Assembly: GCA_963764725.1 (NCBI GenBank)
Contig: CAVXTM010000016.1
Coordinates: 416,001-480,000, forward strand
Length of the DNA stretch: 64,000 nucleotides
Direction: 5' to 3'
Source: an uncultured Gammaproteobacteria bacterium
Lineage (GTDB): Bacteria > Pseudomonadota > Gammaproteobacteria > JACCXJ01
Position numbers and translations under genes: made by a program. The notes under the pieces are model-generated. The model was not told where the DNA came from, made no database searches, and saw only the letters and a program-made list of their open reading frames with translations. How positions within the stretch are numbered: position 1 is the stretch's first letter; every line of letters starts with the position of its first letter. Positions 15,543-41,188 of the stretch are shown one piece after another.

Positions 15543-15585
15543 GGAAGGTTCCTGCGAAGCTGCAAGAGACGCTGCTGCTCGCGCC

Positions 15586-16143: not shown

Positions 16144-16156
16144 AACCTTTGGCGAA

Positions 16157-16561: not shown

Positions 16562-16589
16562 TCTCGTGTTCCTTTCTGTTTCTCTTCTT

Positions 16590-19989: not shown

Positions 19990-19990
19990 A

Positions 19991-20883: not shown

Positions 20884-20999
20884 CGAACGAAGGCGCTGCA
20901 AAGGTCCTGTTCTGTCTGGTGATCCGTCTGGCTTGCCGCGTGAATCGGCACGCGACGCGGCCGCCAACTGTGACGGCTGTTGGTCTCGCGTCTTCACCA

Positions 21000-21075
21000 A
21001 AAATAAACGCTCTTTTTTATCGACCAGAATAGTGGTGCTGGGCGAGTTGTCAAGTACGCGAGTCCTCGAGCTGGC
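21000..21075 (-). repeat. IS91/ISCR oriIS-like end with outward sigma70-like promoter facing cyoA
   Basis: Minus strand GAGGACTCGCGTACTTGACAACTCGCCCAGCACCACTATTCTGGTCGATAAAAAAGAGCGTTTATTT; TTGACA (21053-21048), 16 nt spacer, TATTCT (21031-21026). Confidence 0.7.
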
Positions 21076-21255
21076 GGCAGCAGGCCGCGCTAGCCAAACT
21101 TGCTGCGCTCCTCCTCCGTGAACGCCGTGCCTTGTTCAGCCCTGGGCATTCGAGGAGACCCATCCCGCGAGAGCCTTCCTGCATACCTGACTGCGTCACC
21201 TGCTGGTTTGTCGCCATTGTCCCTCTCCTCTTTTGCTGGTCACCGGGTGCGGCGG

Positions 21256-22062
21256 TTACCGGAAGAGATTGATCTTGGCCAGATCGATGATTTCGTCGCC
21301 GCGTCCGCTGAGCACCGCTTTGAGCATGAACAGGCTGAAGCCGGTCATCTGCTCGAGAGTAATCGTCGGTGGCATAGCAAGCTCCTGCCGATTCACGATG
21401 ACTTCGAGCAGAGCAGGTCCGTCATGCTTGAGCGCTTGCGCAATCATCGGTCGCACTTGATCCGGTGTTTCGGCTCTGAGCCCAAGGAGACCCGCCGCCT
21501 CCGCCATCTTTGCGAAATCTGGGTTGTGCAGGTCTGTTCCAAAATCGAGGATGCCGGCGGCCTTCATTTCCAATTCGACAAACGCCAGCGCGCTGTTGTT
21601 GAGGACGATCACCTTGACCGGCAACTGCAGCTGCCGCAGCGAGAGCAGATCGCCCATGAGCATCGCGAGACCGCCGTCTCCGGACAACGAGATCACTTGA
21701 CGGCCACGATGACTGACCTGTGCCCCGATGGCCTGCGGGAGCGCGTTCGCCATGGATCCGTGGCTGAAGGAGCCCAGAATCCGCCGCCTGCCGTTCATCG
21801 TCAGATACCGCGCCGCCCAGATCGTCGGCGTGCCCACATCGCACGAAAAAATCGCGTCCGCGGCGGCAAGCTCGTCGAGCACGCGGGTCAGGTACTGAGG
21901 ATGGATAGGCTTCTTGCCGTGTCCATCCGTCGCCAGTTCATCAAGGCTCTTGCGGGCCTCTCGATAGTGTTCGACCGAGGCCTTCAAGTGCTCATCGAAT
22001 TCGTGCTGTTCCAGCATTGGCAGAAGGGCGCGAAGGGTCGTCTTCGTATCTCCCACCAAGCC
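21256..22062 (-). pseudogene. poxB: Pyruvate oxidase/dehydrogenase (PoxB-like) C-terminal half
   Basis: IHPQY, GSFSHGSMANALPQAIGAQ, SGDGG..M.MGD (ThDP motif), ELAMPPTI; the 5' half is replaced by an IS91 end. Confidence 0.9.
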
Positions 22063-22063
22063 G

Positions 22064-22355
22064 TTTGTCAAGAGGCACCGTATACTGCTGGGCTCGTGAG
22101 CTGTCAAGCATACGGGTCCGCGGCTGGGATGGGGCATTTTTGGGGCCCTTTTCTCGGCCCGAGAGGCTATGATTCGGGGGCGTTTTGGCGTCTCGGGCGA
22201 GCGAGGGCCAAGAGGGAAGGTCGGCTCTGGGGCTGAACCGGATGGACGCGGGGATCGGTGGGGGATCAAGCCAGTTGGAATCGATCGAAAGCCCTGGCCG
22301 CCGCTCGGAGCGGTGCTCGGCCGGGCAAGCCGAGATGGGGGAGGATCTTGGCGAT
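22064..22355 (-). mobile_element. IS91/ISCR right-end remnant: transposase C-terminus plus downstream oriIS-like region
   Basis: 22355-22266 encodes IAKILPHLGLPGRAPLRAAARAFDRFQLA*; downstream GGACCCGTATGCTTGACAGCTCACGAGCCCAGCAGTATACGGTGCCTCT aligns with the 41107-41156 copy. Confidence 0.8.
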
Positions 22356-22791
22356 GCTGGTGGTGGACGCGGCGACGGTTGACCCGCTTAGGTCGTCGAA
22401 AAAGGTACTCGTCTAAAGCCGTCTCGCAGATCGCCTTAAACCCTTTGTCCTGTACTTGATATGTATGCGCAGCAGACCTATCAACGGGCAAAATCTCACA
22501 CTCGCGGGATCATTAGGAGCCTCCTGGGGCATCTATCACGGTAGTGTCGTCATTATGGCGAGCCGCGGCGGTTTTACGACTGCGACGGCCGGCAACGGAA
22601 AGGGCATAGGGACCCTATGCAACACGGCCAGCGCGACGCTGGCCTATCGTCGCAAAGGATGATACGGTGACTTAGCGGTCGGGAAGCGCGGATATGCGTG
22701 CTTGTGGATGTCGGCCGCGGATGGCGTCGTTGGTGCTGGACTGGGGCCGCTTAGCACCGATGGCGCACGCCGTCCCCGCGAGAACAGAGCG

Positions 22792-23388
22792 ATGAGCAAC
22801 AACCTTCCTGTTATTTACCTGGCCCGGCACGGCGAGACGGCGTGGAGCCTCACGGGTCAACATACGGGGCTTACCGATCTTCCGCTGACCGAGCGCGGCG
22901 AGCAGAACGCCCGCGCGCTCAGGGAACGACTGATCGGACTGAAATTCGGGAAGGTGTTTACGAGCCCTTTGCAGCGTGCGGCACGGACCTGTGAGCTGGC
23001 CGGCTTCGGGGCCGTAGCCGAAGTCGATCGCGATCTGCTCGAATGGAACTACGGCCAATATGAGGGTCGCCGCACGGCCGAGATCCATGCTGAGCGCCCG
23101 GACTGGCAGCTTTTCCGCGACGGCTGCCCAGGCGGTGAATCGCCGGACCAAGTGGGCGCGCGGGCTGACTGCCTGCTGAGCCGGGTGCGAGCCGTCCGAG
23201 CGGACGTGCTGCTTTTTTCTAGCGGCCATTTCCTGCGGGTGCTCGCCGCCCGCTGGCTGGGGCTCGAACCGTCGGCCGGAAGATACCTCCTGCTGAGCAC
23301 CGCGAGCCTGAGTGCGTTAGGCTACGAACATAACCTGTGCGAACCGGTGATCCGGCTGTGGAATGACATTCGTCACGTAGGCATCTGA
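22792..23388 (+). CDS. Histidine phosphatase / phosphoglycerate mutase family protein
   Basis: YLARHGET, TSPLQRAARTC, EWNYGQYEG, FSSGHFLR. Confidence 0.92.
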   Translation: MSNNLPVIYLARHGETAWSLTGQHTGLTDLPLTERGEQNARALRERLIGLKFGKVFTSPLQRAARTCELAGFGAVAEVDRDLLEWNYGQYEGRRTAEIHAERPDWQLFRDGCPGGESPDQVGARADCLLSRVRAVRADVLLFSSGHFLRVLAARWLGLEPSAGRYLLLSTASLSALGYEHNLCEPVIRLWNDIRHVGI

Positions 23389-23442
23389 CCGGATCCGGTT
23401 TGAGATTCACCGAGGTTTAACTTCAACTTAAGAAAACTCCCT

Positions 23443-23625
23443 ATGAGCACAAAAAAAGAGTGATGGCGCCCCAGACGTCAACCGAATCCGAGAGTATTGC
23501 GAAACTTCGCAGTCAGTACGGGTGCGGTCCTATTGAATTCGGGGGCACGGACAACGCGTTGTACGAACGCCACCTTGTGTTCGACAACGTCGTCGATCTG
23601 GCGCCTTGACGATCGGCGCGCGCGA
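23443..23625 (+). pseudogene. Glycogen/alpha-glucan phosphorylase N-terminal fragment
   Basis: An unlisted frame reads QYGCGPIEFGGTDNALYERHLVFDNVVDL, recalled as the N-terminus of a GlgP subfamily found in such clusters. Confidence 0.65.
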
Positions 23626-23656
23626 TGCTCGCGGGCCACGAAACAGAGGAGACATA

Positions 23657-24748
23657 ATGAAAGCGACACAATTGCTTCACAATCTAGGCCAGAGTCTCTG
23701 GCTCGACAATATCACGCGCGACCTGCTGAACAGCGACACGCTCAAACGGTACATCGACGAGTTGTCGGTGACGGGGCTTACCTCAAATCCGACGATCTTC
23801 GACCATGCCATCAAAAACAGCACTGCTTACGACGCCGCGATCCGCGAGAAGCTGAGTAAGAGCAAATCGGGCGAAGCGCTCTTTTTCGAGCTAGCGCTGG
23901 AGGACATCACGCGGGCCGCCGACCTATTTCGACCAGTCTACGACCAGACGGACGGTGTGGACGGGTGGGTCTCGTTGGAAGTGTCGCCCTTGCTGGCCTA
24001 CGACACAGCCAGCAGCCTGGCTGCAGCCAAGGATCTGCACGGGCGGGCGGGACGGCCTAACCTGTTCATCAAGATCCCTGGAACCCAGAAAGGACTGCCT
24101 GCGATCGAGGAGGCGATCTTTGCGGGCATCCCGATAAACGTCACCCTGCTGTTCTCCCGAGAGCACTACATGTCGGCTGCCGAGGCATTCCTGCGGGGTA
24201 TTGAGCGGCGTATCGACGCCGGACTCAAGCCCGGCGTCGGCTCCGTCGCCTCGGTGTTTATCAGTCGCTGGGACTCCGCGGTGATGGGGAAGGTCCCTGA
24301 CTCGCTGCGCGACCAGCTCGGCATCGCCATCGCTAAGCGTACGTACAAGGCGTACCGCCAGTTGCTTGCCTCCCCCCGCTGGCAACGCGTTTTCAACGCC
24401 GGGGCGCGTCCCCAACGGCTCCTATGGGCCAGCACGGGAACCAAGGATCCCAAGGCATCCGACGTCCTCTACATCAAGGCCCTCGCTGCTCCTCTCACGG
24501 TGAACACGATGCCGGAGGGTACCTTGAAAGCCCTCGCCGATCACGGCGAATTGGGCACGATCCTGCCGGCAGACGGTGGCGACTGCGAGGAAGTGTTAGC
24601 GCAGTTCGCTAAGGCCGGAATCGATGTCGACGCCCTGGCCGCTCAGCTTCAGGATGAAGGGGCGAAGTCGTTCGTTAAGTCCTGGAACGAACTGATGGCG
24701 GTGATCACATCCAAGAGTGCTGCACTGAAGGAAACGGTAGCCAGTTGA
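23657..24748 (+). CDS. tal: Transaldolase
   Basis: SLWLDNITR, GLTSNPTIF, VSLEVSP, IKIPGT, QRLLWASTGTK; RBS GAGGAG. Confidence 0.96.
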   Translation: MKATQLLHNLGQSLWLDNITRDLLNSDTLKRYIDELSVTGLTSNPTIFDHAIKNSTAYDAAIREKLSKSKSGEALFFELALEDITRAADLFRPVYDQTDGVDGWVSLEVSPLLAYDTASSLAAAKDLHGRAGRPNLFIKIPGTQKGLPAIEEAIFAGIPINVTLLFSREHYMSAAEAFLRGIERRIDAGLKPGVGSVASVFISRWDSAVMGKVPDSLRDQLGIAIAKRTYKAYRQLLASPRWQRVFNAGARPQRLLWASTGTKDPKASDVLYIKALAAPLTVNTMPEGTLKALADHGELGTILPADGGDCEEVLAQFAKAGIDVDALAAQLQDEGAKSFVKSWNELMAVITSKSAALKETVAS

Positions 24749-24981
24749 AGGCCGGGGTTGATCGTACCGAGAACAACACACCTCAAATTTCCGCGGGCGA
24801 CGGAAGAGTCTCGGAGGCTTCCCATTTGAACGTGCTGGTTATTGATATAGGCGGGACGCATGTCAAAGTCCTCGCCACCGGACAAGCCCAACCTCGGGAG
24901 TTTCCCTCCGGGCCGACCCTGACGCCCAAAAAGATGGTCTCCGGAGTCAAGAAGCTCACGGCGGAATGGAAGTATATATAG
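24745..24981 (+). pseudogene. ROK-family / polyphosphate glucokinase N-terminal fragment
   Basis: [17 protein letters not shown]...FPSGPTLTP...WKY, then stop. Confidence 0.8.
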
Positions 24982-25010
24982 AGAAGTCAGGAGAGGAAAG
25001 GAGTAAGAAC

Positions 25011-26682
<1,672 letters not shown>

Positions 26683-26805
26683 TGACTCACGGCTATGACA
26701 GAGCTAACGTTCTGGCGGCCAAGAAGTGGCTGCAGCGATGGACCGGCTGCGAGCCAACATCAAGGAGTCGTGGAAACAACCTTAACGAGCGCATAGAGGT
26801 GATTT

Positions 26806-27826
26806 ATGCAACTTGGAATGATTGGTCTTGGAAGGATGGGGGCAAACATGGTGCGGAGGCTCCTCAAAGGAGGCCACCGGTGCGTAGTCTTCGACATGTC
26901 GCCGAAAGCAGTGAACGAGTTGGTCCAGGAGAAGGCGGCAGGAAGCTCCTCACTGCCTGATCTCGTGACCAAGTTGGAGAAGCCTCGGGCGGTATGGTTA
27001 ATGGTCCCGGCGGCAGTCGTGGAGAAAACCATTGCCGACCTCCTGCCCCACCTTGAGGCGGAAGACATCCTCATCGACGGCGGCAATTCCTATTACGTGG
27101 ATGACATCCGGCGCGCAAAGGAACTCGCAGCGAAGCGCATCCACTATGTGGACGTGGGGACGAGCGGTGGTGTGTGGGGCCTGGAACGCGGTTACTGCAT
27201 GATGATTGGTGGCGAAAAGGACGTGGTCAAGCACCTCGATCCAATCTTCTCGACGCTGGCGCCGGGCGCGGGTGACGTACCGCGCACGCCGGGACGCGAG
27301 AAATTTGACGGCACCGCCGAACAGGGTTATCTGCACTGCGGTCCCAACGGCGCCGGCCATTTTGTCAAGATGGTCCACAACGGTATCGAGTACGGCCTCA
27401 TGGCCGCCTACGCTGAGGGGCTCGGCATCTTGCGCGACGCCAACGTGGGCAAGGAACAGCACGCGATCGACGCCGAGACGACGCCACTGCGTGACCCCGA
27501 GCATTACCAGTATGATCTCGATTTGCGTGACATCGCGGAGGTGTGGCGGCGCGGCAGCGTGATCGCGTCGTGGTTGCTGGACCTAACGGCGGTGGGCTTG
27601 GTCGAAAGATCCCGCTCTGTCGCAGTTCACCGGGCACGTCTCGGATTCAGGCGAGGGCCGGTGGACGATCAAAGCCGCCATTGACGAGGCCGTACCGGTA
27701 CCCGTTCTCTCCGCCGCGCTTTACCAGCGCTTCACTTCGCGCGGTGAGGCGGATTATCAGGACAGGCTGCTCTCAGCGATGCGCTACGGCTTCGGCGGAC
27801 ACTTGGAGAAAGTAGCCGGTAAATAA
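26806..27826 (+). CDS. gnd: 6-phosphogluconate dehydrogenase, short YqeC/GntZ type (frameshift near 27608)
   Basis: [27 protein letters not shown]; the shifted frame continues VSDSGEGRW...[12 protein letters not shown]. Confidence 0.95.
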
Positions 27827-27850
27827 CCGCCTGAGAAAAGGAGATTTGCG

Positions 27851-29260
27851 ATGAGCGATTCCCATTCCGACGCCCTGGTCTTCTTCGGTGCCACGGGCGA
27901 TCTGGCCTACAAGAAAATCTTCCCGGCGCTGCAGGCGATGCTTAAACGTGGCCACCTCGACGTGCCGGTCATCGGTGTGGCCAAAGCCGGTTGGAACCTC
28001 GAACAGCTTCGGGCGCGGGCACACGACAGCCTCGAGAAACACGGCGGAGTCGATGCTACGGCTTTCGACAAGCTGAGTGGCTTACTGCGTTATGTGGACG
28101 GCGACTACACAGACTCTGCCACCTTCCAGACGATCCGCAAAGAACTCAAGGGGGCGCAACGGCCGGCGCATTACCTGGCCATCCCGCCCCTCCTGTTCGG
28201 AACGGTTGTGGAACAATTAGCGAAATCGGGCTGTGCCCAGGGCGCTCGCGTCATTGTCGAGAAGCCCTTCGGCAATGACCTTGCCTCGGCGCAGGAGCTC
28301 AACCGGATCCTGCATGCAGCCTTCCCCGAGTCCGGGATCTTTCGCATTGACCACTATCTTGGCAAGCGGCCGGTGAACAACGTGGTCGTTTTCCGGTTCG
28401 CCAACGCGTTCATGGAGCCGTTCTGGAATCGAAACTATATCGAAAGCGTGCAGATCACGATGGCGGAAGAATTCGGGGTGCAAGGACGCGGCGCTTTCTA
28501 CGATCAAACTGGCACCATTCGCGACGTGATCCAAAACCATCTCTTCCAAGTGCTGTGCAACCTTGCGATGGAGCCTCCGGTGCGCACAGACAGCCAAACC
28601 ATTCGTGATGAGAAGGTCAAGGTACTGAAAGCGATTCCACCGCTCCAGGCGAACAATCTCGTCCGAGGGCAGTTCCGCGGCTACCGCCAGGAAACGGGAG
28701 TAGCTCCCGATTCGAAGGTGGAAACCTTTGCCGCGCTGCGACTGGAGGTCGATTCCTGGCGTTGGAAGGGCGTGCCATTCTACATCCGAGCAGGGAAGAA
28801 CATGCCGGTGACCTGCACGGAGGTCCTTGGCCGGTTTCGAAAGCCTCCGACGGTCATCAGGGAGAGTGCTCTGTCTCAGAACCATCTGCGGTTCCGGATC
28901 AGTCCCGAGATGACGATAGCCGTAGGCACGACCGTTATGGCTCCGGGCGAAGTGATGAAAGGCGAGACGGTGGAGATGGTGGCCAGCCGTCATCCCCGTC
29001 CGGACGAGATGGAAGCGTACGAGCGCGTGCTGGGCGACGCGATGGCCGGAGACGCCACCCTGTTTGCCCGCGAGGATTACGTCGAAGAGGCGTGGCGAAT
29101 CGTCGATCCGGTGCTGAAGGCCAGCACTCCGATCTACGAATACGAGAAAGGTGCCTGGGGTCCGAGTGAGGTCGACCAGAGAGTTTCGCCTGCCGGAGGC
29201 TGGCATAACCCGACCGCCACAGACCAGGAAGATTTCCGCGTTGTTCCCGAAGCCGGCTGA
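27851..29260 (+). CDS. zwf: Glucose-6-phosphate 1-dehydrogenase
   Basis: [44 protein letters not shown]. Confidence 0.97.
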
Positions 29261-29346
29261 CGAGGCGGTCGTGCCTAGGGCGGTTGTGAGTGGTCTTCGC
29301 ATCCGATGTGTGGGTTGTCAGATTGATCCCATCTGGAGAAAGTCCC

Positions 29347-30058
29347 ATGCAGCTCGAAGTGTTTGATGATGCCGATTCCGTCGCGCGAGCGGCTGCGGCG
29401 ACAATCGCCGCGGATGCTCGTGCGGCGATCCCTGCCCGTGGCCGCTTCGCGCTGGCTGTCAGTGGCGGCCACACTCCGTGGCTCATGCTGCGGACGCTGG
29501 CGGGGGAAGATATCCCTTGGGCGGGTGTGCATATATGCCAGGTCGACGAGCGTGTGGCTCCAGAGGGACACCTGGACCGAAACCTCACCCACTTGCGTGA
29601 AAGCTTGGTTCAGCATGCCCCCCTGCACCCGGAGCAGATTCATGCCATGCCGGTGGAATCGCCCGACCTGGAGGCCGCAGCCACGCAGTATTCCCTGGCT
29701 CTGCGGGAGCTCGCAGGATCGCCGCCGGTGCTCGACCTCGTCCACCTCGGTCTCGGTGCCGACGGCCATACTGCCTCACTGGTGCCTGGCGATGCGGTTC
29801 TCGATGTTACCGACGCGGACGTGGCGCCGACCGGAGTCTACCAAGGCAGACGCCGGATGACGTTGACGTATCCGATGCTCAATCGCGCCCGCCGGGTACT
29901 TTGGGTTGTGACCGGAAGTGAGAAGGTGGAAATGCTCCGTCGCCTGCGCGACGGCGATCGTGTCGATTCCCGCCGGGCGGGTCCGCCGCGAACACGCCCT
30001 GCTGCTGGCCGACCGCGCGGCAGCAGGACAGCTGACCCCTGAATACAAGCGAGGATAA
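29347..30058 (+). CDS. pgl: 6-phosphogluconolactonase (frameshift near the 3' end)
   Basis: SGGHTP, VDERV, LGLGADGHTASL, RMTLTYP. Confidence 0.92.
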
Positions 30059-30059
30059 C

Positions 30060-30551: not shown

Positions 30552-30666
30552 ATCTATACAACCAGCGCTCGGTGGTGTTCCTAATCGTGAAGGACACAGG
30601 CCACGACGCAGCGGCAGCAGTCGCGGCCGTGAAACAGAAAATCAGCGGATTAGCGAGGAGAAAACC

Positions 30667-32081: not shown

Positions 32082-32180
32082 GGCCGATTCGGAACATGTC
32101 GACGGTTGCGGCCGCGCGGAGCCGAACCCTTCAAAGCGAATGAACTTCACTAGTGAAAGAGCAGGAAGGAAATCCTAATC

Positions 32181-33945
32181 ATGAAGGCCACAAAGACTTC
32201 ACCCAAGCAGCCGTCTAAGACGCTGTCACAGGAACAAGTGAGATTAATGAACGCCTACTGGCGAGCAGCCAATTACTTGTCGGTCGGCCAAATCTATCTG
32301 CTGGACAACCCACTGCTCAAGGAGCAGCTCAAGTCCGCGCACATCAAGCGGCGTCTGCTCGGCCACTGGGGGACGACGCCCGGCTTGAACTTCATCTACG
32401 TGCACCTCAACCGCCTGATCACGGAGCAGGACCTGAACATGATCTACATCGCCGGCCCCGGTCACGGAGGTCCGGGCATTGTCGCCAACGTCTACCTGGA
32501 AGGGACTTACAGCGAGGTGTATCCCAATGTATCGCAGAACACGGAAGGAATAAAGCGGCTGTTTAAACAATTCTCCTTCCCCGGCGGTATCCCGAGCCAC
32601 GTGGCGCCCGAAACTCCCGGCTCGATCCACGAAGGCGGCGAACTCGGCTACGCCATCTCTCACGCCTACGGTGCGGCGTTCGACAACCCCGACCTGATTG
32701 TCGCCTGTGTCGTCGGCGACGGCGAAGCCGAGACCGGGCCGCTCGCCGCCAGCTGGCATTCCAACAAATTTCTCAACCCCGCGGGTGACGGCGCGGTGCT
32801 GCCCATCCTGCACCTGAATGGCTATAAGATCGCTAACCCAACGGTGCTCGCGCGAATCAGCCGCGAGGAGCTGGAGAGCTTGTTCGTCGGCTACGGTTAC
32901 AAGCCATACCTGGTCGAAGGCTCCGAACCTGAGGCCACGCATCAATTGATGGCAAAGACGCTCGATACGTGCATCGCCGAGATCAAACAGATTCAGCAGC
33001 AGGCGCACGCGAAAGGTTACTCCGGCCGTGGACTAGATGTTTAACCAGCACGCCAAGTGGCTCAAGACGACTAGCAAGGAGATCCCGTGGCGCGCGCCCA
33101 TCGCTTCGCTGAATTACTTGCTCTCGTCCCACGTGTGGCGGCAGGATCACAACGGCTTTTCACACCAGGACCCCGGCTTTATCGATCACGCCACCAATAA
33201 GAAGGCCGACATCATTCGAGTCTATCTGCCGCCTGACGCCAACACACTGATCTCGGTGACTGATCACTGCCTGCGGAGCCGCAACTATATCAACATTGTG
33301 GTGGCGGGGAAACAACTGGCGTTGCAATACCTGGACATGGATTCAGCCATCAAGCACTGCACCGCCGGCATCGGGATCTGGGAATGGGCCAGCAACGACA
33401 AGGGCGGCGAACCGGATCTGGTAATGGCTTGCGCTGGCGATGTCCCGACTTTGGAGACGCTGGCGGCAGTGCATCTGCTCCGCCAATTCGTCCCCGACCT
33501 CAAGATTCGCGTGATCAATGTCGTGGACCTCATGAAGCTGCAGCCTGAGGAAGAGCACCCGCATGGCCTGCCGCACAAAGATTTTGACACCCTCTTCACG
33601 ACCGACAAACCAATCATTTTTGCTTATCACGGTTATCCTTGGCTGATCCACCGCATGACCTACCGGAGAACGAATCACGGGAATCTGCACGTCCGCGGCT
33701 ACAAAGAGGAGGGCACAACCACGACCCCGTTCGATATGACGGTTCGGAACGAGATGGACCGCTTCCACCTGGTGAATGACGCCATCGATCGGGTGCCGAA
33801 GCTCGGATACCTCGCCGCCTATGCCAAGCAGGCCATCCGCGACAAGTTGATTGAACACCAGCAGTACATTGCCGAGCATGGGGATGACATGCCCGAAGTC
33901 CGCGACTGGAAGTGGGGTGAAGTGAAGCGGGCCCCAGGCGGGTGA
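32181..33945 (+). pseudogene. xfp: Phosphoketolase with internal deletion at about 33028
   Basis: [15 protein letters not shown] and GDGEAETGP in the N-part; it jumps to [11 protein letters not shown]...[12 protein letters not shown]; the middle segment is missing. Confidence 0.92.
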
Positions 33946-33979
33946 AATGCAACCGCAAGGTTAACAGCCAGAAAATCCC

Positions 33980-34057
33980 TGGGACTAGCGCGTTTGACAA
34001 CTCACTGGGCCATTAGTACCCTTCCTTTTAGCGAAAAAGGGCGTTTATTCTCCCTAG
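33980..34057 (+). repeat. IS91/ISCR oriIS-like end with outward sigma70-like promoter facing the debranching-enzyme operon
   Basis: GGGACTAGCGCGTTTGACAACTCACTGGGCCATTAGTACCCT...AAAAAGGGCGTTTATTCTCCCTAG; TTGACA 33994-33999, 17 nt spacer, TACCCT 34017-34022. Confidence 0.75.
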
Positions 34058-34187
34058 GGTGGCCCTAGCCCCAAGCAAATCGCAGACGAGCTTTTTTGCC
34101 AAATGCAAAGACGTCACGGTGAAGGAATCGCCGGCTGCGGGCGCGGTCGATGAGTGCAATCGCCCTCGCGCCATGATCGGGTGATCC

Positions 34188-36344
34188 ATGCCGGTCGAGA
34201 TCACCGTCGGTCCGCCGGTCTTGAGCATCAACCAGGGCGCCACCTTCATGGTGACGGACCTGGGTGGAGAGATCCAGGCGGACACCGAGCAGGGCGTCTT
34301 CGCCGACGACACGCGTTTCGTCTCGTACTACGCGATCTCCGCGAACGGCGTGCCGTGGCAGCGCCTAAACTCTGCCGCCACGGCGTACTTCGCAGCCCGT
34401 GTCTACCTCACCAACGCCATTGTCGCAACTGAAGACGGCGACGTCCCCGCGGGCACGCTGTCGCTCATCATCAGCCGCACCGTCGGTGATGGCATCCACG
34501 AGGACCTGGATATCGTGAACCACGGGCTCGTGCCCGTCCGCTTCAACCTCGAGGTCGCCCTGCGCTCGGACTTCGCGGACCTGTTCGAGGTGAAGCTCGG
34601 ACGCCTCGTCCGCCGGGGCCGCATCGTGACACGGTGGCACGAGCGGCGGTCGGAGCTCGAGACCTCGTACGCCAATCGAGACTTCCGCCGGAGCCTGGTC
34701 TACCGGCCCCTGAACAATACCTCTCCTCCCGGCTATGCGAATGGCCGGGTCACGTTCGAGGTCGAACTCGGCCCCGGGGCCACGTGGCACACCTGCTGCC
34801 ACTACCTGTTGGTCCGGGATGAAGCGGTGCGCGCGCCCCGACCCGCCTGCTACCACGACCGCGCGGCGACCGACCAGGACCGACTCCATCACCGGTGGCT
34901 CGACGTGGCGACCAAGGTGACGAGCGCCAACGAGGACGTCTACCGCCTCTACCGGCAGTCCGTCGAGGACATGGGCGCGCTGCGTCTGTACGACCAGGAT
35001 CTCGCCCCGGATGTCTGGCTCCCCGCGGCCGGCGTACCGTGGTTCGTCGCGATCTTCGGCCGCGATTCGCTGATCGCGAGCCTGCAGAACATGATCGTCA
35101 ATGCGGGCTTCGCGCGCGGCGCGCTGAAGAAGCTGGCCGAGCTCCAGGCGACGGAGACGGACGACCGTCGCGACGCCGAGCCCGGAAAGATCCCACACGA
35201 GGTGCGCACCGGAGAGCTCGCCCACTTCCACCTGATCCCGCACACGCCCTATTACGGCACCGCCGACGCCACGCCCCTCTATGTGATTGCCCTGCACGAA
35301 ACCTGGAAGTGGCTCGGCGAGCTCGACCTGCTGCGCGAGCACCGGGCGACAGCGCTCCGCTGCCTCGAATGGATCGACCGCTACGGCGATCCCGATGGGG
35401 ACGGCTTCCAGGAGTATCGGACGCGTTCCCCGCAGGGCTACGAGAACATGGGCTGGAAGGACGCGGGCGACGCGGTGGTCTACCCCGACGGCCGTCAGGT
35501 CCACGCGCCGAAGGCCCTCTGCGAGCTCCAGGGCTACGTCTTCGACGCGTGGATGCGCATGGCGGAGATCTTCGAGGCACTCGACGAGCGGGAGCGCGCG
35601 GCCGGGCTGCGCGCCAAGGCGAAGGCGCTCCGGGCGGCCTTCGAGGAGAAGTTCTGGTGCGAGGACCTCGGCTTCTACGCGTTCGCGCTCGATCCCGACA
35701 AGCAGCCTGTTCGGACGATCGCCTCCAACGCCGGCCACTGCCTCGCGAGCGGCATCGCGAGCCCGGACCACGCTGCGCGGGTCGTCAGGCGCTTCTTCGA
35801 GCCCGACATGTGGAGCGGATGGGGCATCCGGACGCTGTCGGCACAGAATCCCGCGTACAATCCCTTCTCCTACCAGCGGGGATCGGTCTGGCCGCACGAC
35901 AACGGCATCATCGCGCTCGGCTTCAAGCGCTATGGCTTCGCCGCCGAGGCGGCCCGGGTGGCGCGGGACATCTCGGAGGCGGCGAGCTACTTCGTGAGCT
36001 ACCGGTTGCCGGAGCTCTACGCGGGTATCGAGCGCCGCCCCGACACGTTCCCCGTCCTCTATCCGCAGGCCAACGTGCCACAGGCCTGGGCCGCCGGGAG
36101 CGTCTTCCACCTACTGCAAGCGATGCTCGGCATCCGGGCGGATGCGCCGAGGGGCCGGCTCTACGTCGATCCCGAGCTTCCGCTTTGGCTCCCGGAGATC
36201 ACGCTCCACGGGTTGGCGGTGGGCCGGGCGCGAGTGGACCTGCGCTTCTGGCGTGACGGCGATCGGAGCCGGTGGACGGCGGAGATACGGGAAGGCACGA
36301 TTTCCGTGCAGGAGGAGGCGTGGCGTCCATGGGGCCTCGACTAG
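34188..36344 (+). CDS. Glycogen debranching enzyme / amylo-alpha-1,6-glucosidase family
   Basis: AAGVPWFVAIFGRDSLI, AEPGKIPHE, YYGTADATPL, GWKDAGD, YQRGSVWPHDN, RLPELYAG, PQAWAAG. Confidence 0.93.
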   Translation: MPVEITVGPPVLSINQGATFMVTDLGGEIQADTEQGVFADDTRFVSYYAISANGVPWQRLNSAATAYFAARVYLTNAIVATEDGDVPAGTLSLIISRTVGDGIHEDLDIVNHGLVPVRFNLEVALRSDFADLFEVKLGRLVRRGRIVTRWHERRSELETSYANRDFRRSLVYRPLNNTSPPGYANGRVTFEVELGPGATWHTCCHYLLVRDEAVRAPRPACYHDRAATDQDRLHHRWLDVATKVTSANEDVYRLYRQSVEDMGALRLYDQDLAPDVWLPAAGVPWFVAIFGRDSLIASLQNMIVNAGFARGALKKLAELQATETDDRRDAEPGKIPHEVRTGELAHFHLIPHTPYYGTADATPLYVIALHETWKWLGELDLLREHRATALRCLEWIDRYGDPDGDGFQEYRTRSPQGYENMGWKDAGDAVVYPDGRQVHAPKALCELQGYVFDAWMRMAEIFEALDERERAAGLRAKAKALRAAFEEKFWCEDLGFYAFALDPDKQPVRTIASNAGHCLASGIASPDHAARVVRRFFEPDMWSGWGIRTLSAQNPAYNPFSYQRGSVWPHDNGIIALGFKRYGFAAEAARVARDISEAASYFVSYRLPELYAGIERRPDTFPVLYPQANVPQAWAAGSVFHLLQAMLGIRADAPRGRLYVDPELPLWLPEITLHGLAVGRARVDLRFWRDGDRSRWTAEIREGTISVQEEAWRPWGLD

Positions 36345-36461
36345 GCGCGAGGACTGGCTCATGAGCCAGATGCCATCCGATCTCTTCCGGCCGATCCACG
36401 AGAGAGCGGGCTGACAATGGCGACCCGCATCCCGACGCCACTCGCACAAGGTTTCTTCGTC

Positions 36462-36509
36462 CAAACTGACGCGCTCATCCGGCGGTTCCGGAGGCTCGCG
36501 GCACGATGA
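36462..36509 (+). pseudogene. Probable Pgi C-terminal remnant overlapping the glk start
   Basis: [14 protein letters not shown] resembles the Pgi tail (compare [12 protein letters not shown] at 26.6 kb); the stop overlaps the glk ATG (ATGA). Confidence 0.45.
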
Positions 36510-37504
36510 AAGCGACGCGGCCGGCCCTGCTGCTCGCGGGGGACGTCGGCGGAACGAAGACGAACCTGGCGCTCTTCACGGCCGCAGGCGAAGTGCTCAC
36601 GCACGTCGCCGAGGCGCATTTCGTCAACCACGGCTATGGGGGCCTGGAGGATGTCGTCCGGGCCTTTCTCGCACGCGAGGCGTACGTCCCGACGGCGGCC
36701 TGCTTCGGCGTGGCCGGGCCGGTCGCCGACGGCCGCGCCCGGATGCCCAACCTCGGCTGGCGGATCGACGCCTTCGGCCTCGGGCGGCTACTCGCGCTCG
36801 AGCGGGTGGTGCTCCTGAACGATCTCGAGGCGACGGCGTACGGCATCGCGACGCTTCCTCCTGAGCGGCTCGTGGTCCTTAACCCCGGCGTCTCGACCGC
36901 CGGCGGCAACGCCGCGCTCATCGCGGCCGGCACCGGTCTCGGCGAAGCGGTGCTCTACTGGGACGGGACACGTCACCGCATCTGCAGATCGGAGGGCGGC
37001 CACGCCGACTTCGCGCCCCACAACGCTGAGGAGATGCAGATCCTCGCGCGGCTGATGGAGCGCTTTGGCCACGTGAGCTGGGAGCGCCTCGTCTCTGGCC
37101 CCGGGCTCCGTAACATATACGGCGCGCTCGAGATGCCCGAGGCGCCCGACGTCACCGCTAGCATCGAGGCAGCCGAGGACGCGAGCGCGACGATCACAGA
37201 GCTGGGGCTCGCACGAACGTCCGCGCGCTGCACCCGTGCGCTCGACGTATTCGTCTCGGCCTACGGCGCCGAGGCGGGCAACCTCGCTCTCAAGGCCCTC
37301 GCCACCGACGGAGTGTACGTGGGGGGAGGCATCGCGCCGAAGATCCTTCCGAAGCTCGAGGACGGCGCGTTCCTGCGCGCGTTTACGGCCAAGGGGCGTT
37401 TCGCCGAGTGGCTCGCGCGCATCCCCGTGAAGGTCATCCTCGATCCGAAGACGGCGCTCCGAGGCGCCGCCGCTTACCTCGCCGGCATGGAAGTTCGCTC
37501 ATGA
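36506..37504 (+). CDS. glk: Glucokinase
   Basis: [49 protein letters not shown]. Confidence 0.95.
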
Positions 37505-37525
37505 CCGGGGATCTCGACCTTTGAC

Positions 37526-39372
37526 ATGGATCCGCGATACCAACCGATCGAGAATTACGGCGTCATCGGCAACCTGCGCACGGCCGCGCTGGTCGGCATG
37601 GACGGCTCGATCGACTGGCTCTGCCTGCCGCACTTCGATTCGCCCAGCGTCTTCGCCGCCATCCTGGACGACCGACAAGGGCGGCCGCTTCCGCATCGCC
37701 CCGGCCGGCGACCGACTTCCGCCACAAGCAGTTCTACTGGCCGGACACCAACATCCTCATCACGCGCTTCCTGCACGCCGACGGCATCGGCGAGATCGAG
37801 GATTACATGCCGGTCGGCGGCGCCGGCGCCGTGCCGGACGAGCTGATCCGCCGAGTCCGCGTCGTCCGCGGCCGGTTGCCGTTTCGATCTGGAGTGCCGC
37901 CCGGCCTTCGACTACGCCCGCGCCGCCCACCAAATCCACATCGACGGCGCACGGCGCCCGCTTCGACGGGCCGGGCCTGAGCCTCGGCCTGGCCGCCCCG
38001 GTCCCGCTGCGGCCCGACGGCGACGGCGTGGTCGCCGACTTCACGCTCGGCGAAGGCGAGAAGGCCACGTTCGTCCTGCGCCGCCTCGGCCCCGACGACC
38101 AGCCCGGCCGCTGCCCCGGCGTCGGACGAGGCGGAGGAGCTGTTCCGCGACACCGTCGCCTACTGGCGGCGCTGGCTCTCGCAGTGCACTTACCCCGGCC
38201 GCTGGCGCGAGATGGTCCACCGCTCCGCCCTGACGCTGAAGCTCCTGTCCTTCGAGCCGACCGGGGCGATCGTCGCGGCCCCGACCTGCAGCCTGCCCGA
38301 GGCGATCGGCGGCGTGCGCAACTGGGACTACCGCTACACCTGGATCCGCGACGCCGCGTTCACGCTGTACGGCCTGCTGCGCATCGGCTTCACCGAGGAG
38401 GCGGCCCGCTTCCGGGACTGGCTGAAGGACCGCTGGCAAGACGCCGACGGCAATGGGACCGGCCCCTTGCAGCTCATGTACGGCATCGACGGCCGGGCCG
38501 ACCTCACCGAGGAGACGCTCGACCACCTGGAGGGCTACCGCGGCTCGCGGCCGGTGCGGATCGGCAACGGCGCGCACCGGCAGCTGCAGCTGGACATCTA
38601 CGGCGAGCTGATGGACGCGGTCTACCTGCACAACAAGTACGTCGCGCCCGTCGGCTACGACGGCTGGGTGCGCCTGCGGCGGCTGGTGGACTGGCTGTGC
38701 GACAACTGGAAGCGGGAGGACGAGGGCATCTGGGAAGTGCGCGGCGGCCGGCGGCACTTCGTCTACTCGAAGCTCATGTGCTGGGTGGCCCTGGACCGCA
38801 GCCTGCGGCTGGCCGACAAGCGCTCCTTCCCGGCGGACCGGGCGCGCTGGCTGAAGGTCCGCGACGAGATCTACGAGGAGGTCATGGCCAAGGGCTGGAA
38901 CCCGCGCCGCCAGGCGTTCGTGCAGGCCTACGGCTCCGACGCCCTGGACGCCTCGAGCCTGCTGATGCCGCTGGTGTTCTTCATGGCCCCGAACGACCCG
39001 CGCATGCTCAGCACGGTGGACGCGATCCGCCGGCCCCTGGCCGCGGGCGGCCTGGCCGCCGACGGTCTGGTCTACCGCTACGATCCCGCCGCCGCCCCGG
39101 ACGGACTGCCGGGCCGCGAGGGGACCTTCAACATGTGCTCCTTCTGGCTGGTCGAGGCGCTGACCCGCGCCGGCCGCACCGACCCGGCCCGGCTGGAAGA
39201 GGCCCGGCTGCTCTTCGAGCAGATGCTCGGCTACGCCAACCACCTCGGCCTGTACGCCGAGCAGACCGGCGACAGCGGCGAGGCCCTGGGCAACTTCCCG
39301 CAGGCGTTCACCCACCTGGCCCTGATCAGCGCCGCCTTCAACCTCGACCGGACGCTTGGGGCCGGGCGGTAG
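37526..39372 (+). CDS. GH15 glycoside hydrolase (trehalase/glucoamylase-like); frameshifts in the 5' third
   Basis: [62 protein letters not shown]. Confidence 0.93.
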
Positions 39373-39398
39373 TGCCGTCAACTACAGTAGCAGAACAA

Positions 39399-41072
39399 AT
39401 GCAATCATCCATTGGGACTCAATCAGGTAGGGACGTAGCCGAGGTCACACTAACCGGCTTGCGCATTGCCCCGGGTTTGGGGATGGGTAGCGCCTGGGTT
39501 GTGGGTGACAGGCTTGAATGTCTCGGGGACGCTCACCGTATCGAACCCCATGAAGTCGAGCGGGAGTTGAGCCGGATACGGTTGGCGTTCGACCAGACGC
39601 GTGCGGAACTCCAAGAAGCTGCACGTCGCGTCGAAGAGCAGTTCAATTCGCATCTCGCCGACATTTTCCGCGCTCATGAAATGATGCTCGACAGCCTCCT
39701 CTCATCCACCGAGTTCGTACAGGAGCTACAAGGATCGCTGGTGAATGCAGAGGCAGTGGTGAGGCGCATCTTTCGCCGGTGGCAGGAGAAGTTTCACTCT
39801 CTGACAGGCGAAACGTTCCAGCAGCGAGCCGACGACCTTGCCGACCTCGGACGCAAAGTCCTGCGCCACCTTGAAGGTGAAGACGCCGACCGAGTGAAGA
39901 ACCTCCCTGCGGGCAGCGTACTCGTGCTCCAGCACCTTCTGCCTTCCGATGTCGTATCGTTGTCGCGGCGCGCCGTCGCGGCCATCGTCGTGGAGTCGCT
40001 CGGGCAAGGCTCGCATGCGGCACTGCTCGCCCGCGAGAAAAGCCTTCCCACGGTCGCTGACTTTCCGGGTATTCTGGAGCGCATTGGTGACGGCGACGAA
40101 GTGTTGGTGGATGCCTATCGCGGCGAACTTGTCCTCGCGCCGGATGGGAAAACGCGCGCCGAGTTTCACGAACGGCTGACGCAATACCAAGCGACGCTGG
40201 CCCGGTGCAAAGGCGCTTGCCGCCAACCGGCGCGTACGCTCGATGGCGAGCTAGTGAAGGTCGAAGCGAATCTCGGTGCATACGACGATGTCGAGCTAGC
40301 GCTGGACAACGGTGCCGATGGCGTGGGCCTGTTCCGCCTCGAACAACTCTACCTCGCTCGCGAGCTCCCGCCGACGGAAGCGGAACTGCTCGACGAACTG
40401 CGTGCCATCACGTCTCCGCTGCGGGACAAGCCGCTTACCATCCGGCTCCTCGACATCGGCGGCGACAAGCCCGTTCCGTTTCTGCACCTCCCGGCAGAGG
40501 CCAATCCGCTCCTTGGTAAACGCGGCGTTCGCCTGCTGCTGGAGTACCCCCAACTTGCGCAGACTCAGCTCGCCGCCTTGTTGCGCCTGTCACACGAACG
40601 GCAAATCCGCGTGCTCGTGCCGATGGTCACACTGGAGGAAGACATTCAAGCGATGCGAGAGTTGTTCGAGGTAAAGTGCACCGAGCTCGGCGTGTGGCAG
40701 CATCCTGCGTTTGGCGCCATGATTGAAACACCGGCCGCAGCCCTCAGCGTGCCTGCGATTGCCAAGCATGTCGATTTCCTCTGCGTCGGCACCAACGATC
40801 TCACACAATACACGCTCGCTGCCGGTCGGGACAACCCGACCGTGAACCGTTACTTTCTGGACAATCACTCCTCTCTTCTTCGGCTGCTTGACATCATTGT
40901 CGCGGACGCCGGAGAGACGCCGCTGACGCTTTGCGGGGAGCTGGCGGGGCGAGAGGAAATGATGCCGCAGTTGCTGGCGATGGAATTCCGTTCGTTCAGT
41001 ATTGCTCCACCTTTAATTCCGGGTGTGAAGGAGCTGATCAGAAGCCTACGCATCGCTCCTGCAGGGGGGTGA
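39399..41072 (+). CDS. PEP-protein phosphotransferase (PTS Enzyme I-like), stand-alone
   Basis: [10 protein letters not shown] (phospho-His), [37 protein letters not shown] (catalytic Cys). Confidence 0.92.
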
Positions 41073-41104
41073 ACCGTGCTCAATGGAGCGAATGCATGCC
41101 CAGG

Positions 41105-41188
41105 CCGAGGACTCGCATGTTTGACAACTCACGAGCCCAGCAGTACTGTGCCTCTCGGTAAGAAAGGGCGTTTAAAATCCTTATTCCC
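41105..41188 (+). repeat. IS91/ISCR oriIS-like end with outward sigma70-like promoter facing GH38
   Basis: GAGGACTCGCATGTTTGACAACTCACGAGCCCAGCAGTACTGTGCCTCTCGGTAAGAAAGGGCGTTTAAAATCCTTATTCC; TTGACA 41121-41126, 17 nt spacer, TACTGT 41144-41149. Confidence 0.75.

Follow-up and report, generated by a model that had tools for sequence, protein, structure and literature searches.

What are the four short, mutually alignable segments that lie between unrelated operons in a 64,000-nt stretch of DNA from an uncultured gammaproteobacterium (the window), and did they bring those operons together? A sequence-only reading had taken them for oriIS-like ends of IS91/ISCR elements that assembled the region by repeated one-ended transposition. 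All four segments were found, with a mean column identity of 64% and an invariant TTGACA. A nucleotide HMM built from them was searched against the whole 4.21-Mb genome and recovered them with E values of 2.8e-21 to 1.2e-15; iteration of the search, by which the coordinates of the window copies were also refined, yielded a repeat family of 64 copies genome-wide (nhmmer, E<=1e-4), of which the window holds only four. Pfam searches bore out the flanking genes that had been named (COX2, His_Phos_1/transaldolase/G6PD, XFP, a debranching-type glycosidase, PTS enzyme I and GH38), and detected only the C-terminal half of the thiamine-enzyme (poxB-like) gene between copies 1 and 2. Copy 1 faces the cyo operon (cyoA-like ORF at 19908-20747, with a COX2 domain by Pfam), copy 4 faces the GH38 gene (41349-43778; Pfam), and the stretch that follows copy 3 precedes a debranching-type gene (34188-36344). 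The features of the window are as follows.

7994..22694: 14.7-kb block containing the cyo operon, copy 1, a poxB-like remnant, copy 2 and three transposase fragments
8154..8228, minus strand: small transposase fragment (aa 293-322; tblastn), lying immediately within the left boundary of that block
15589..16164, minus strand: internal fragment of the same ISCR-type transposase (aa 244-440 of 541, 68% identity; PF04986, tblastn)
20999..21074, minus strand: copy 1, solo ISCR-type tail, 5'-truncated (model 16-95), terminus decayed (nhmmer)
21026-21031 and 21048-21053, minus strand: promoter-like hexamers of copy 1, -10 TATTCT and -35 TTGACA, 16-nt spacer
22064..22141, minus strand: copy 2, tail joined to a transposase remnant, 3'-truncated at model position 78
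22079-22084 and 22102-22107, minus strand: hexamers of copy 2, -10 TATACG and -35, spacer 17 nt
22142..22400, minus strand: spacer and ISCR-type transposase C-terminal remnant, ending ...IAKILPHLGLPGRAPLRAAARAFDRFQLA at the stop codon 22266-22268 (translation)
33978..34056, plus strand: copy 3, solo tail covering model 21-99, internally deleted within the 5' portion
33994-33999 and 34017-34022, plus strand: hexamers of copy 3, -35 and -10 TACCCT, spacer 17 nt
34057..34178, plus strand: extension module (85 nt, truncated here) and transketolase-gene remnant (34119-34178)
41100..41188, plus strand: copy 4, solo tail, 5'-truncated (model 16-104), terminus intact ...GGGCGTTTAAAATCCTTATTC
41121-41126 and 41144-41149, plus strand: hexamers of copy 4, -35 and -10 TACTGT, spacer 17 nt

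At all six loci of the source genome (G000) that carry the C-terminus of the ISCR-type transposase, a family copy follows the transposase stop by about 150 (150-170) nt. The C-terminus that had been noticed near copy 2 (...IAKILPHLGLPGRAP...FQLA and stop) was confirmed: it reads along the minus strand, and ~125 nt separate its stop codon (22266-22268) from the copy. The spacer and remnant at 22142..22400 align with five other transposase 3' ends, and gave blastn matches to C16:101989-102173 and C18:143874-144040. The larger transposase piece, claimed at 15586-16143, was located at 15589-16164, and the genome contains 13 matches to PF04986 (Y2_Tnp), including 15580-15861 of the window. A search for an intact IS91 transposase in the same genome identified one, a 541-aa ORF at C9:93500-95125, which is 51-53% identical over 84% of the length to the transposases of ISVsa3/ISCR2 and ISCR1, members of the 'common region' subgroup of the IS91 family.

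Two near-identical elements, at C9:95 kb and C9:103 kb, part ways directly after ...CCTATTCG, and this divergence defines the end of the element. Similarity to sequences downstream of IS91-family transposase genes, on which the earlier assignment depended, was found in 3/3 known elements tested (ISCR1, ISCR2 and a third IS91-family element): positions 72-104 of the family model align to termini that sit about 200-255 nt past the transposase stop codons. The last 30 nt of the family align to the real ISCR1 and ISCR2 oriIS termini, and the ISCR2-type end given in the earlier reading proved accurate, the ISCR2 (ISVsa3) record carrying GAAAAGGGCGTTTATTCTTCCTATACG about 200 nt past the transposase stop at the point where the model aligns. 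The transposase linkage, the transposase identity and the homology of the termini thus establish that the tail belongs to an ISCR-type element and that its terminus is homologous to the oriIS of ISCR1/ISCR2. The layout is also that of ISCR elements: behind the transposase stands a non-coding tail of ~200-250 nt whose end reads AAAAGG(G/T)(C/G)GTTTA...TTCCTAT(A/T)C. Possible subterminal imperfect palindromes can be read in the consensus (CTGGACC...GGTCCAG and CCTTTT...AAAAGG), with pairing across the 64 copies at the level expected from column composition, and covariation supporting the expected oriIS hairpins was absent across these copies. Ahead of four transposase N-termini, no common boundary could be defined that might represent terIS.

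The repeat family is dispersed, old and present across the whole bacterial family. Median pairwise identity among the 64 copies was 62%, and only five pairs reached at least 95% identity, all of them within larger repeats. The family model detected 12-69 copies per genome in 15/15 sampled genomes of the same bacterial family, and copies in 1/26 genomes from other families of the class. Transposase matches in the 15 genomes were nearly all fragments and intact transposases were rare (one in G000 and one in G009), with 64 tails vs 17 transposase matches in G000. Tail lengths vary from ~50 to >300 nt. The copies begin anywhere between model positions 1 and 56, a ragged 5' end, with clusters near positions 1-8 (36 copies), 11-16 (seven) and 20-25 (11); divergence among the copies prevented nucleotide-level placement of the 5' junctions. 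The only defined end is the 3' end, where the boundary is sharp, (C/T)TAT(A/T)C, like that of ISCR ends. In about 12 solo copies the spacer persists, together with the transposase stop region. A MITE, characterised by terminal inverted repeats, fixed length and target-site duplication, was considered and rejected in view of the ragged 5' ends and the 3' end alone being defined.

The most conserved columns of the family are the promoter hexamers: among the 64 copies, at a median pairwise identity of 62%, TTGACA is conserved at 95-100%, the model spacer is 17 nt (16, 17, 17 and 17 nt in the window copies) and the -10 TAnnnT is conserved at 98% (T), 100% (A) and 98% (final T), all percentages being taken from HMM-selected matches and so biased toward conserved columns. 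This promoter-like feature is absent from the sequence-only reading. By a crude gene finder of our own that covered 78% of the genome, the downstream gene is co-oriented in 51/63 copies and the upstream gene in 32/64; tandem contexts alone gave 26 vs 7 (p = 0.0013), divergent vs convergent contexts 25 vs 5. For 12/63 copies no co-oriented gene lies ahead, and the copies end a median of 166 nt before the start codon. Pfam domains were present in 18/20 downstream ORFs tested, with diverse accessory functions, and a copy is kept upstream of four distinct orthologous genes in genome G001. A direct comparison at the tkt locus, made to look for purifying selection, gave 89% identity in the copy region vs 93% in the coding part, which did not discriminate. 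The pattern of conservation and orientation suggests that the copies most likely serve as outward promoters of accessory genes, and that a near-consensus outward promoter is their dominant feature, under apparent selection.

Beyond the bacterial family, a TTGAC-N17-TAnnnT plus AAAAAGGnnGTTTnAAnTTCCTATnC layout was present in 18/80 loci with transposase-linked tails in other taxa (by record titles mostly Proteobacteria, with Nitrospirales and one Terriglobia genome). TTGACA itself occurs in ~95% of solo copies vs ~6/19 transposase-linked tails in other taxa, as scored by eye. Because tails next to transposases in other phyla have the motif too, its role could instead be that of a recognition element (transposase or hairpin) and not of a promoter.

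We consider it probable that the four segments are solo, 5'-truncated ISCR-type tails, kept as outward promoters. Their source would be the ~250-nt non-coding tail after the transposase gene of an ISCR-type (IS91-family, HUH rolling-circle) element, ending in the oriIS terminus and carrying a putative outward sigma-70-type promoter (TTGACA-17 nt-TAnnnT) about 35-70 nt inside that terminus. Solo tails may have arisen when ori-anchored transposition ended early, a process demonstrated by experiment for IS801, or by transposase loss after insertion, and would have been retained because they drive the downstream gene, in the manner of the ISCR1 POUT promoters of resistance genes, which the account in PMC6218425 places in the oriIS region. 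The copies now fall on breakpoints where genomes differ in structure, probably through being repeated and once recombinogenic ends, and this gives them the appearance of module boundaries.

Such breakpoints were observed on comparison with G003, a genome 95-97% identical to that of the window. The 14.7-kb block, which begins with GTTC and has a right flank beginning with CTTG, is replaced by ~545 bp at the matching locus (blastn of the boundary), and the G003 match ends exactly at 21073, the edge of copy 1. Copy 2 is truncated at the start of the truncated thiamine-enzyme gene; its G003 orthologue spans the full length (model 2-104) next to a shorter gene remnant, and the poxB'-copy 2-tnp' unit lies on a different contig there. 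Copy 3 is 94% conserved in G003, with a breakpoint at the xfp remnant exactly at its 5' edge and a 205-bp difference in the tkt-remnant stretch nearby. This copy belongs to a duplicated promoter-leader-tkt' module rather than being an independent insertion. The 85-nt extension is common to 8/64 copies and its HMM matches nowhere but at these; no Rfam match was obtained for the region 34057..34178, and the extension was not found upstream of the transposases. A further ~10-kb G000-specific segment with copies on its flanks is present at locus L060, and 14/27 G001 ORFs downstream of copies are without a homologue in G000. Among the 30 loci compared with G003, none was a clean presence/absence site, the differences being replacements and small deletions (relatives' assemblies are fragmented into 130-510 contigs). 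The claim that copies stand at junctions was therefore upheld as regards breakpoints at copy edges, seen for the 14.7-kb block and the xfp remnant, and not as regards one-ended insertion as their cause.

Active rolling-circle capture, in which oriIS ends without a transposase, acted on in trans by the rare intact enzyme at C9:93500-95125, would have built an island (cyo, pentose-phosphate and glycosidase genes) by repeated one-ended transposition, is in our judgement unlikely. The genome does encode the intact 541-aa enzyme; terIS read-through by IS91 and IS1294 occurs in 1-14% of events as given in PMC13181058, and IS801 mobilises adjacent DNA and right-end fragments in vivo, fragments of 229-679 nt transposing alone, as described in PMC3189936. 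The 14.7-kb block, bounded by transposase fragments, missing from the G003 locus and with breakpoints at GTTC and CTTG, would suit capture, as would the poxB'-copy 2-tnp' unit on another G003 contig, the copy-flanked L060 segment and the G001 ORFs lacking G000 homologues. Against it stand the divergence of the copies, with near-identical pairs solely inside larger repeats, the indefinable terIS, the 0/30 loci with a clean insertion and both flanks intact, and the arrival of copy 3 with a duplicated leader and tkt remnant. GTTC or CTTG followed the terminus in 0/33 copies with a recognisable terminus (51 examined), where 29 different tetranucleotides were found; these are the targets of IS91, IS801 and IS1294, and may not apply to ISCR elements. 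In the rolling-circle model, moreover, the cargo is the DNA on the transposase side of oriIS and not downstream, and the co-oriented downstream genes would therefore be unexplained without further recombination steps. On these grounds, the proposed assembly of the island was not borne out.

It is highly improbable that a host promoter or regulatory module (e.g. for a global regulator) came first and that an insertion sequence picked up one copy, the oriIS likeness being secondary. The conservation of the hexamers above all other columns, the excess of TTGACA in solo copies over transposase-linked tails elsewhere and the family-wide distribution would fit such an origin, but it is largely refuted by the presence of a copy at a fixed distance from 6/6 transposase ends, the match of the terminal 30 nt to ISCR1 and ISCR2, and the same layout beside related transposases in other taxa; the spacer and stop region retained by some solo copies and the sharp, ISCR-like 3' boundary also speak against it. 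Least credible of all is that the copies mark boundaries through repeat-broken or mis-joined assemblies with chimeric junctions: the relatives' assemblies are fragmented and metagenome contigs end or switch at copy edges (e.g. 41098-41100), but the window lies within a 513-kb contig of a 19-contig assembly, copies 2 and 3 recur with their flanks at 93-97% identity in the independent genome G003, and the copies are too diverged to mislead an assembler.

Solo ISCR-type tails kept as outward promoters would resemble several known systems. As in ISCR elements, the oriIS side is occupied by variable genes that are often co-oriented; for ISCR, outward promoters in the oriIS region are described in PMC6218425. 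Unlike in ISCR elements, the host here is environmental and soil-associated, the neighbours are ordinary accessory or metabolic genes and not resistance genes, solo tails (64) far exceed transposase matches (17), and the element is decayed in nearly all 15 sampled genomes; the near-consensus TTGACA-N17-TAnnnT also differs from the weak PCR1-1/PCR1-2 hexamers that PMC6218425 gives for ISCR1. Miniature right-end fragments of IS801 likewise have the ori (right) end intact and a variable cut on the transposase side, and one-ended right-end products, at 26% of IS801 events by the account in PMC3189936, are the best-documented route to solo IS91-family tails. Those fragments start with a left-end-like tetranucleotide (GAAC and similar) and insert beside a target tetranucleotide, as that source describes them, whereas the right end was recognisable in 33/51 copies examined here and no target tetranucleotide follows. 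Most genomic IS801 fragments were attributed to rearrangements (Bardaji et al., 2011; PMC3189936), and by analogy the tails described here may also have originated in this way.

A looser analogy may be drawn with Helitrons and their non-autonomous derivatives, which would share HUH rolling-circle chemistry, a defined terminus at one end and ragged truncation at the opposite one, captured gene fragments and many non-autonomous copies per autonomous one; the transposase family is different (no helicase domain was seen here), the host is bacterial and copy numbers are far smaller. Bacterial mobile promoters and IS-borne outward promoters similarly provide the -35/-10 of unrelated downstream genes from a mobile-element repeat. 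IS-borne outward promoters are usually single insertions of intact elements, unlike the family-wide set of dozens of transposase-less tails seen here.

A wider proposal, which we regard as doubtful and put forward tentatively, is that a whole bacterial family turned an ISCR-type tail into a portable promoter cassette, with intact transposases still occasionally moving or re-joining tail-plus-gene modules. If this were true, decayed oriIS ends would drive transcription of dozens of accessory genes per genome and of some genes of central metabolism, and the system would parallel, in bacteria, the shuffling of promoters and genes by Helitrons, with ordinary chromosomal genes rather than resistance genes as its material.

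The four segments singled out by the sequence-only reading were present as described. Their alignment (n = 4) spans ~80-100 nt, has a mean column identity of 64% and shows TTGACA without variation. When a profile of these four copies was run against the whole 4.21-Mb genome (G000; 19 contigs, the window being C16:416001-480000), the window copies were recovered at E = 2.8e-21 to 1.2e-15, along with 35 further genomic places at E <= 1e-3. The final model, obtained after three rounds, was 106 nt long and detected 64 genomic copies at E <= 1e-4 (71 at E <= 1), of which those in the window were only the four already named:

20999-21074, minus strand: copy 1, model positions 16-95
22064-22141, minus strand: copy 2, model positions 2-78
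33978-34056, plus strand: copy 3, model positions 21-99
41100-41188, plus strand: copy 4, model positions 16-104

No Rfam family matched the window at gathering thresholds, and nothing was found for 33900-34250 even at E <= 1. Four public runs showed raised depth and many loose ends at the copies, as a repeat family would give (14 runs were found, all stored as contigs and most of them only guessed to be RNA). The labels that had been given to the flanking genes were confirmed by Pfam on both sides; of the thiamine enzyme labelled 'poxB' just the C-terminal half proved to be present, and xfp to be interrupted and to have lost internal sequence.

An intact IS91-type transposase gene in the same genome had been proposed as something to look for. 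PF04986, the IS91-family transposase domain, had 13 matches in the genome, and one transposase type was represented by an intact gene of 541 aa on contig C9 (C9:93500-95125) and many scattered fragments. Pieces in the window, all of the same type as the C9 gene, were:

15589-16164: ISCR-type transposase piece
8154-8228: ISCR-type transposase piece
ending at 22266: ISCR-type transposase C-terminus

On alignment of the downstream DNA, a copy of the repeat family was seen 150-170 nt past the stop codon at all six loci that keep the C-terminus of this transposase. Two near-identical elements on C9 were identical as far as ...GTTTCAAGTTCCTATTCG and divergent beyond, which marks the end of the element. 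Along 84% of its length, the C9-type transposase showed 51-53% identity to its counterparts in ISVsa3 (ISCR2) and ISCR1 on clinical plasmids. In three ISCR/IS91-type records, the 450 nt following the transposase stop codon were searched with the family model, and model positions 72-104 matched all three, ~200-255 nt past the stop. The terminus at the match was GAAAAGGGCGTTTATTCTTCCTATACG in ISCR2, which verified the ISCR2-type end named in the sequence-only reading, and CAAAAAGGTGGTTTATACTTCCTATACCC in ISCR1. Transposase linkage and terminus homology thus bore out the proposed identity of the segments as IS91/ISCR ori ends. Each repeat is a tail of an ISCR-type element that bears its oriIS, that is, the non-coding stretch that follows the transposase gene, and their membership is well supported. 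Six other apparently intact transposase genes (C7:103087, C13:51388, C15:169400, C10:131195, C10:137243 and C9:7533) form a second type of the IS91 family; they were only ~22% identical to the ISCR-type transposase and had no family copy nearby.

The 3' boundary of the copies was sharp, with unrelated flanks beginning right after a terminus of the form (C/T)nTAnnC, typically CTTATTC or CCTATAC, which was recognisable in 33 of the 51 copies that reach model position 95. The 5' boundary was ragged: the 64 copies started at model positions 1-8 (36 copies), 11-16 (7), 20-25 (11) or further in (10), and ~12 copies kept at least 160 nt, including the spacer and in some cases the transposase stop region. 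A scan of all column pairs over the 64 copies revealed no helix pairing above expectation. Median pairwise identity was 62%, and only 5 of 1591 pairs, all inside larger repeats, reached 95%, indicating that the family is old. Three near-identical copies (C5:157322-157439, C10:268467-268584 and C6:105-221) lay within a repeat of at least 800 bp with both flanks identical, which means that a tail has travelled as part of a larger repeat. In three or four copies the end of another IS, TACACAGTGCAGAATGTATTGGCCGA, adjoined the copy at about model position 25:

C16:174317-174398: copy abutted by the other IS
C16:206262-206343: copy abutted by the other IS
C18:579206-579283: copy abutted by the other IS
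C4:36622-36661: copy abutted by the other IS

The coding end before it reads, by eye, ...YNTERPHHALGLNTP..., presumably that of a DDE/rve-type transposase. Such a shared junction would result if this IS targets the site in the copy or if a composite has been spreading.

Eight of the 64 copies, copy 3 included, carried an extra 85-nt module past the usual terminus:

window 34057-34178: 85-nt module, also at seven other loci, e.g. C18:144920-145003 and C12:108484-108568

The module contains two hairpins, one of them a GC hairpin, and finishes with ...GAATCTATAC; beyond that point the eight loci diverge. One stem has at least one compensatory change. It had only one partial match elsewhere in the genome and no Rfam family. 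A motif search allowing three mismatches was too permissive (mostly chance matches), and an HMM search was used instead. We take these copies to form a subfamily with its true terminus 85 nt beyond the usual one; the module may be a second ori terminus particular to this subfamily, or else a 5'-leader RNA. The possibility that it represents terIS joined to oriIS was rejected, as the extension HMM found nothing significant upstream of any transposase in four regions of this genome and ~90 stored loci (best E = 0.43).

The most conserved columns were those of TTGACA (100, 100, 98, 100, 95 and 95%, against a background of 62%) and, 17 nt later, three of TAnnnT, with T at 98%, A at 100% and the final T at 98%, figures that come from hits picked by a profile which itself rewards these columns. 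These are the positions that matter most in sigma-70-type promoters. Copies 1-4 all carried TTGACA; the spacer was 16 nt in copy 1 and 17 nt in the other three, and the -10 hexamers were TATTCT, TATACG, TACCCT and TACTGT, respectively. Transposase-linked tails of other taxa also carried hexamers, with TTGACA itself in only ~6 of 19 hits (by eye), and the hexamers may also, or instead, serve the transposase. Genes were called with our own simple codon-usage finder (3483 genes, 78% coverage) for the orientation counts. The next gene was co-oriented downstream of 51 of 63 copies, compared to 32 of 64 upstream, an asymmetry that speaks against a simple strand bias in insertion as the cause. Copies lay in tandem facing the gene in 26 cases, in divergent contexts in 25, in tandem facing away in 7 and in convergent contexts in 5; the difference was significant for the tandem contexts alone (26 v 7, p = 0.0013) and for divergent against convergent (25 v 5, compared to 424 v 306 genome-wide, p = 0.005). 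Copies ended a median of 166 nt before the start codon. Pfam domains were present in 18 of 20 downstream ORFs tested, with diverse accessory functions (PLD-like, TIR, NACHT, PIN, outer-membrane efflux, SulP, PPK2, cellulose-synthase-like GT2, hydrolases and others), and only two paralogous pairs occurred among 47 downstream proteins. A direct precedent for the promoter reading is offered by ISCR1, whose oriIS region is described in a section of PMC6218425 as having outward promoters that raise downstream resistance genes 13- to 15-fold.

When searched with a sequence-only covariance model built from 23 copies (E <= 1e-4, counts among at most 88 scored candidates), every one of the 15 genomes from this bacterial family, which span three genera, yielded copies. 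Counts were 63 in G000, 62 in G001, 69 in the close relative G003 and 12-65 in the other twelve, rising roughly with genome size; G001, G002, G005, G007-G010, G012 and G014 are unpublished and enter these counts, and G001 and G005 also the comparisons below. Among genomes from other families of the class, 1 of 26 had matches, with two copies. Transposase matches in the 15 genomes were nearly all fragments (these are draft genomes, in which repeats are often unassembled), and among the matches listed only those at G000:C9 and G009:C335 ran end to end without a stop. G000 had 64 tails and 17 transposase matches although the gene is ~15 times as long as the tail, which indicates that tails are preferentially made or preferentially kept. 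Related transposases (58-74% identity) were found at 409 places in other genomes; the 80 loci kept were, by record title, mostly from Proteobacteria, plus Nitrospirales and one Terriglobia genome, and in 18 of them the tail was recognisable in the same layout. At one locus, in a Nitrospirales chromosome record (L128, 3253-4481), a related ISCR-type transposase has downstream of it four oriIS termini spaced at a period of 394 bp, which make up a tandem array of ori ends. At another (L124, a MAG labelled Gammaproteobacteria), the transposase is 74% identical to the C9 gene and the tail matches the model almost end to end (E = 1.8e-25). No other proteobacterial locus comes nearly as close, which points to a recent horizontal transfer or to an error in binning.

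We compared the window with G003, whose shared genes are 95-97% identical to those of G000. The pentose-phosphate cluster was collinear. To its left in G003, ~545 bp link the His_Phos_1 gene to sequence matching window 4661-7993, and this block of the window had no counterpart at that locus:

7994-22694: 14.7-kb block with the cyo operon, copy 1, a poxB-like remnant, copy 2 and three transposase fragments

The block starts with GTTC and its right flank with CTTG, which PMC13181058 gives as the two IS91 target tetranucleotides; the coincidence is suggestive, but chance may explain it. The unit of poxB remnant, copy 2 and transposase fragment lay on another contig in G003, where the match began precisely at the 5' edge of copy 1 (21073). 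Copy 2 was full length beside a shorter gene remnant in G003, and cut at model position 78 beside a longer one in G000. The ~100-250 bp just upstream of copy 1 had a 79%-identical paralogue beside the 15.6-16.2 kb transposase piece (window 21073-21230 and 16315-16573), and its G003 homologue continued where the window has copy 1.

At copy 3, a 90-bp remnant of the xfp middle region in G003 replaced window 32093-33967, with the right breakpoint exactly at the 5' edge of the copy. The phosphoketolase gene itself (window 32181-33945) is split into two ORFs, running in XFP_N to profile position 265/364 and then in XFP from 98, with ~200 codons missing; of this missing middle G003 retains just the 90-bp piece. 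An apparently complete paralogue is present at C16:231511-233720. Downstream of copy 3, G003 had 205 bp of a transketolase 5' fragment that was lost in G000 between two GGTGAAGGA repeats, and copy 3 with its extension resembled (82% identity) the copy before the transketolase gene (tkt) just upstream of the window. The likeness and the fragment together indicate that copy 3 arrived within a duplicated promoter-leader-tkt module. At the tkt locus itself, G005 and G000 were unusually similar (89-93% identity, compared to 69-73% for other shared genes), making a selection comparison there uninformative. In G005 (L203, G005:C81, against C16:414676-416327) the sequence was ~1.2 kb longer at G000 position 415212/3. 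The locus may have been exchanged recently, or G000 may have undergone a deletion.

Of 30 copy loci in G003, 9 were conserved in G000 with both flanks, 5 had a match that stopped within ~65 bp of the copy, 7 had no match (at least 88% identity) within 3 kb and 9 matched only at a distance; these are raw counts, and no enrichment over ordinary intergenic differences between the two genomes is claimed. In G001, four distinct orthologous genes kept their upstream copy, and 14 of 27 downstream ORFs had no homologue in G000. A further ~10-kb segment of G000 (C16:199475-209483), missing at the G003 locus (L060), holds three family copies and the other, abutting IS.

The sequence-only reading had taken the copies as module boundaries, marking an island built by one-ended transposition. 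The copies do coincide with junctions that differ from G003, but construction of the island in this way was not supported, and an active system of gene capture by rolling-circle ends is unlikely. The age of the copies speaks against recent activity, as do three negative results: the IS91-type target tetranucleotide was absent after the copies with a recognisable terminus (33 of 51), terIS was not found on comparing the regions upstream of four transposase N-termini (patchy similarities only), and close inspection of four of the 30 G003 loci gave no clean insertion or empty site, only replacements and small deletions. Geometry also stands against it. Rolling-circle replication is described, in sections of PMC6218425 and PMC3189936, as proceeding from oriIS through the transposase to terIS. 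Read-through DNA would thus lie on the transposase side, not downstream of oriIS. Captured genes beside oriIS would need an extra recombination step, such as has been proposed for complex class 1 integrons.

How solo tails, those without a transposase, may arise is indicated by work on IS801. Bardaji et al. 2011 (PMC3189936) trapped IS801 insertions in the native host; in 26% of events the product was a right-end fragment (229, 360 or 679 nt), which one-ended transposition had left by stopping early at a tetranucleotide resembling the left end. The same authors concluded that most genomic IS801 fragments are rearrangement products. Either route would leave the ori end sharp and the opposite end ragged, as observed here. 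We consider it probable that old solo tails have been retained as putative outward promoters of neighbouring genes, and that the same tails double as rearrangement junctions. ISCR biology, outward promoters and solo right ends are already known. What is apparently new is the lineage-wide, high-copy occurrence of transposase-less ISCR tails before ordinary chromosomal genes: the literature searched, outside subscription journals, gave no report of high-copy solo ISCR/IS91 oriIS tails as chromosomal promoters.

To our knowledge, nearly all that is known of ISCR elements comes from clinical resistance plasmids, where one oriIS end lies beside captured resistance genes and aids their expression. 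Here, in contrast, each genome has 12-69 such ends, in three genera of an environmental lineage, nearly always without a transposase and before unrelated accessory genes. According to PMC6218425, ISCR transposition has never been demonstrated experimentally, and the association of the ISCR1 end with genes is still an open question. The lineage offers a natural, non-pathogen system for studying how ISCR ends come to adjoin neighbouring genes. If the promoter reading is true, the 106-nt model would let annotators predict promoters and rearrangement-prone junctions in these genomes, and it would follow that a rolling-circle IS can seed a large share of the accessory-gene promoters of a lineage.
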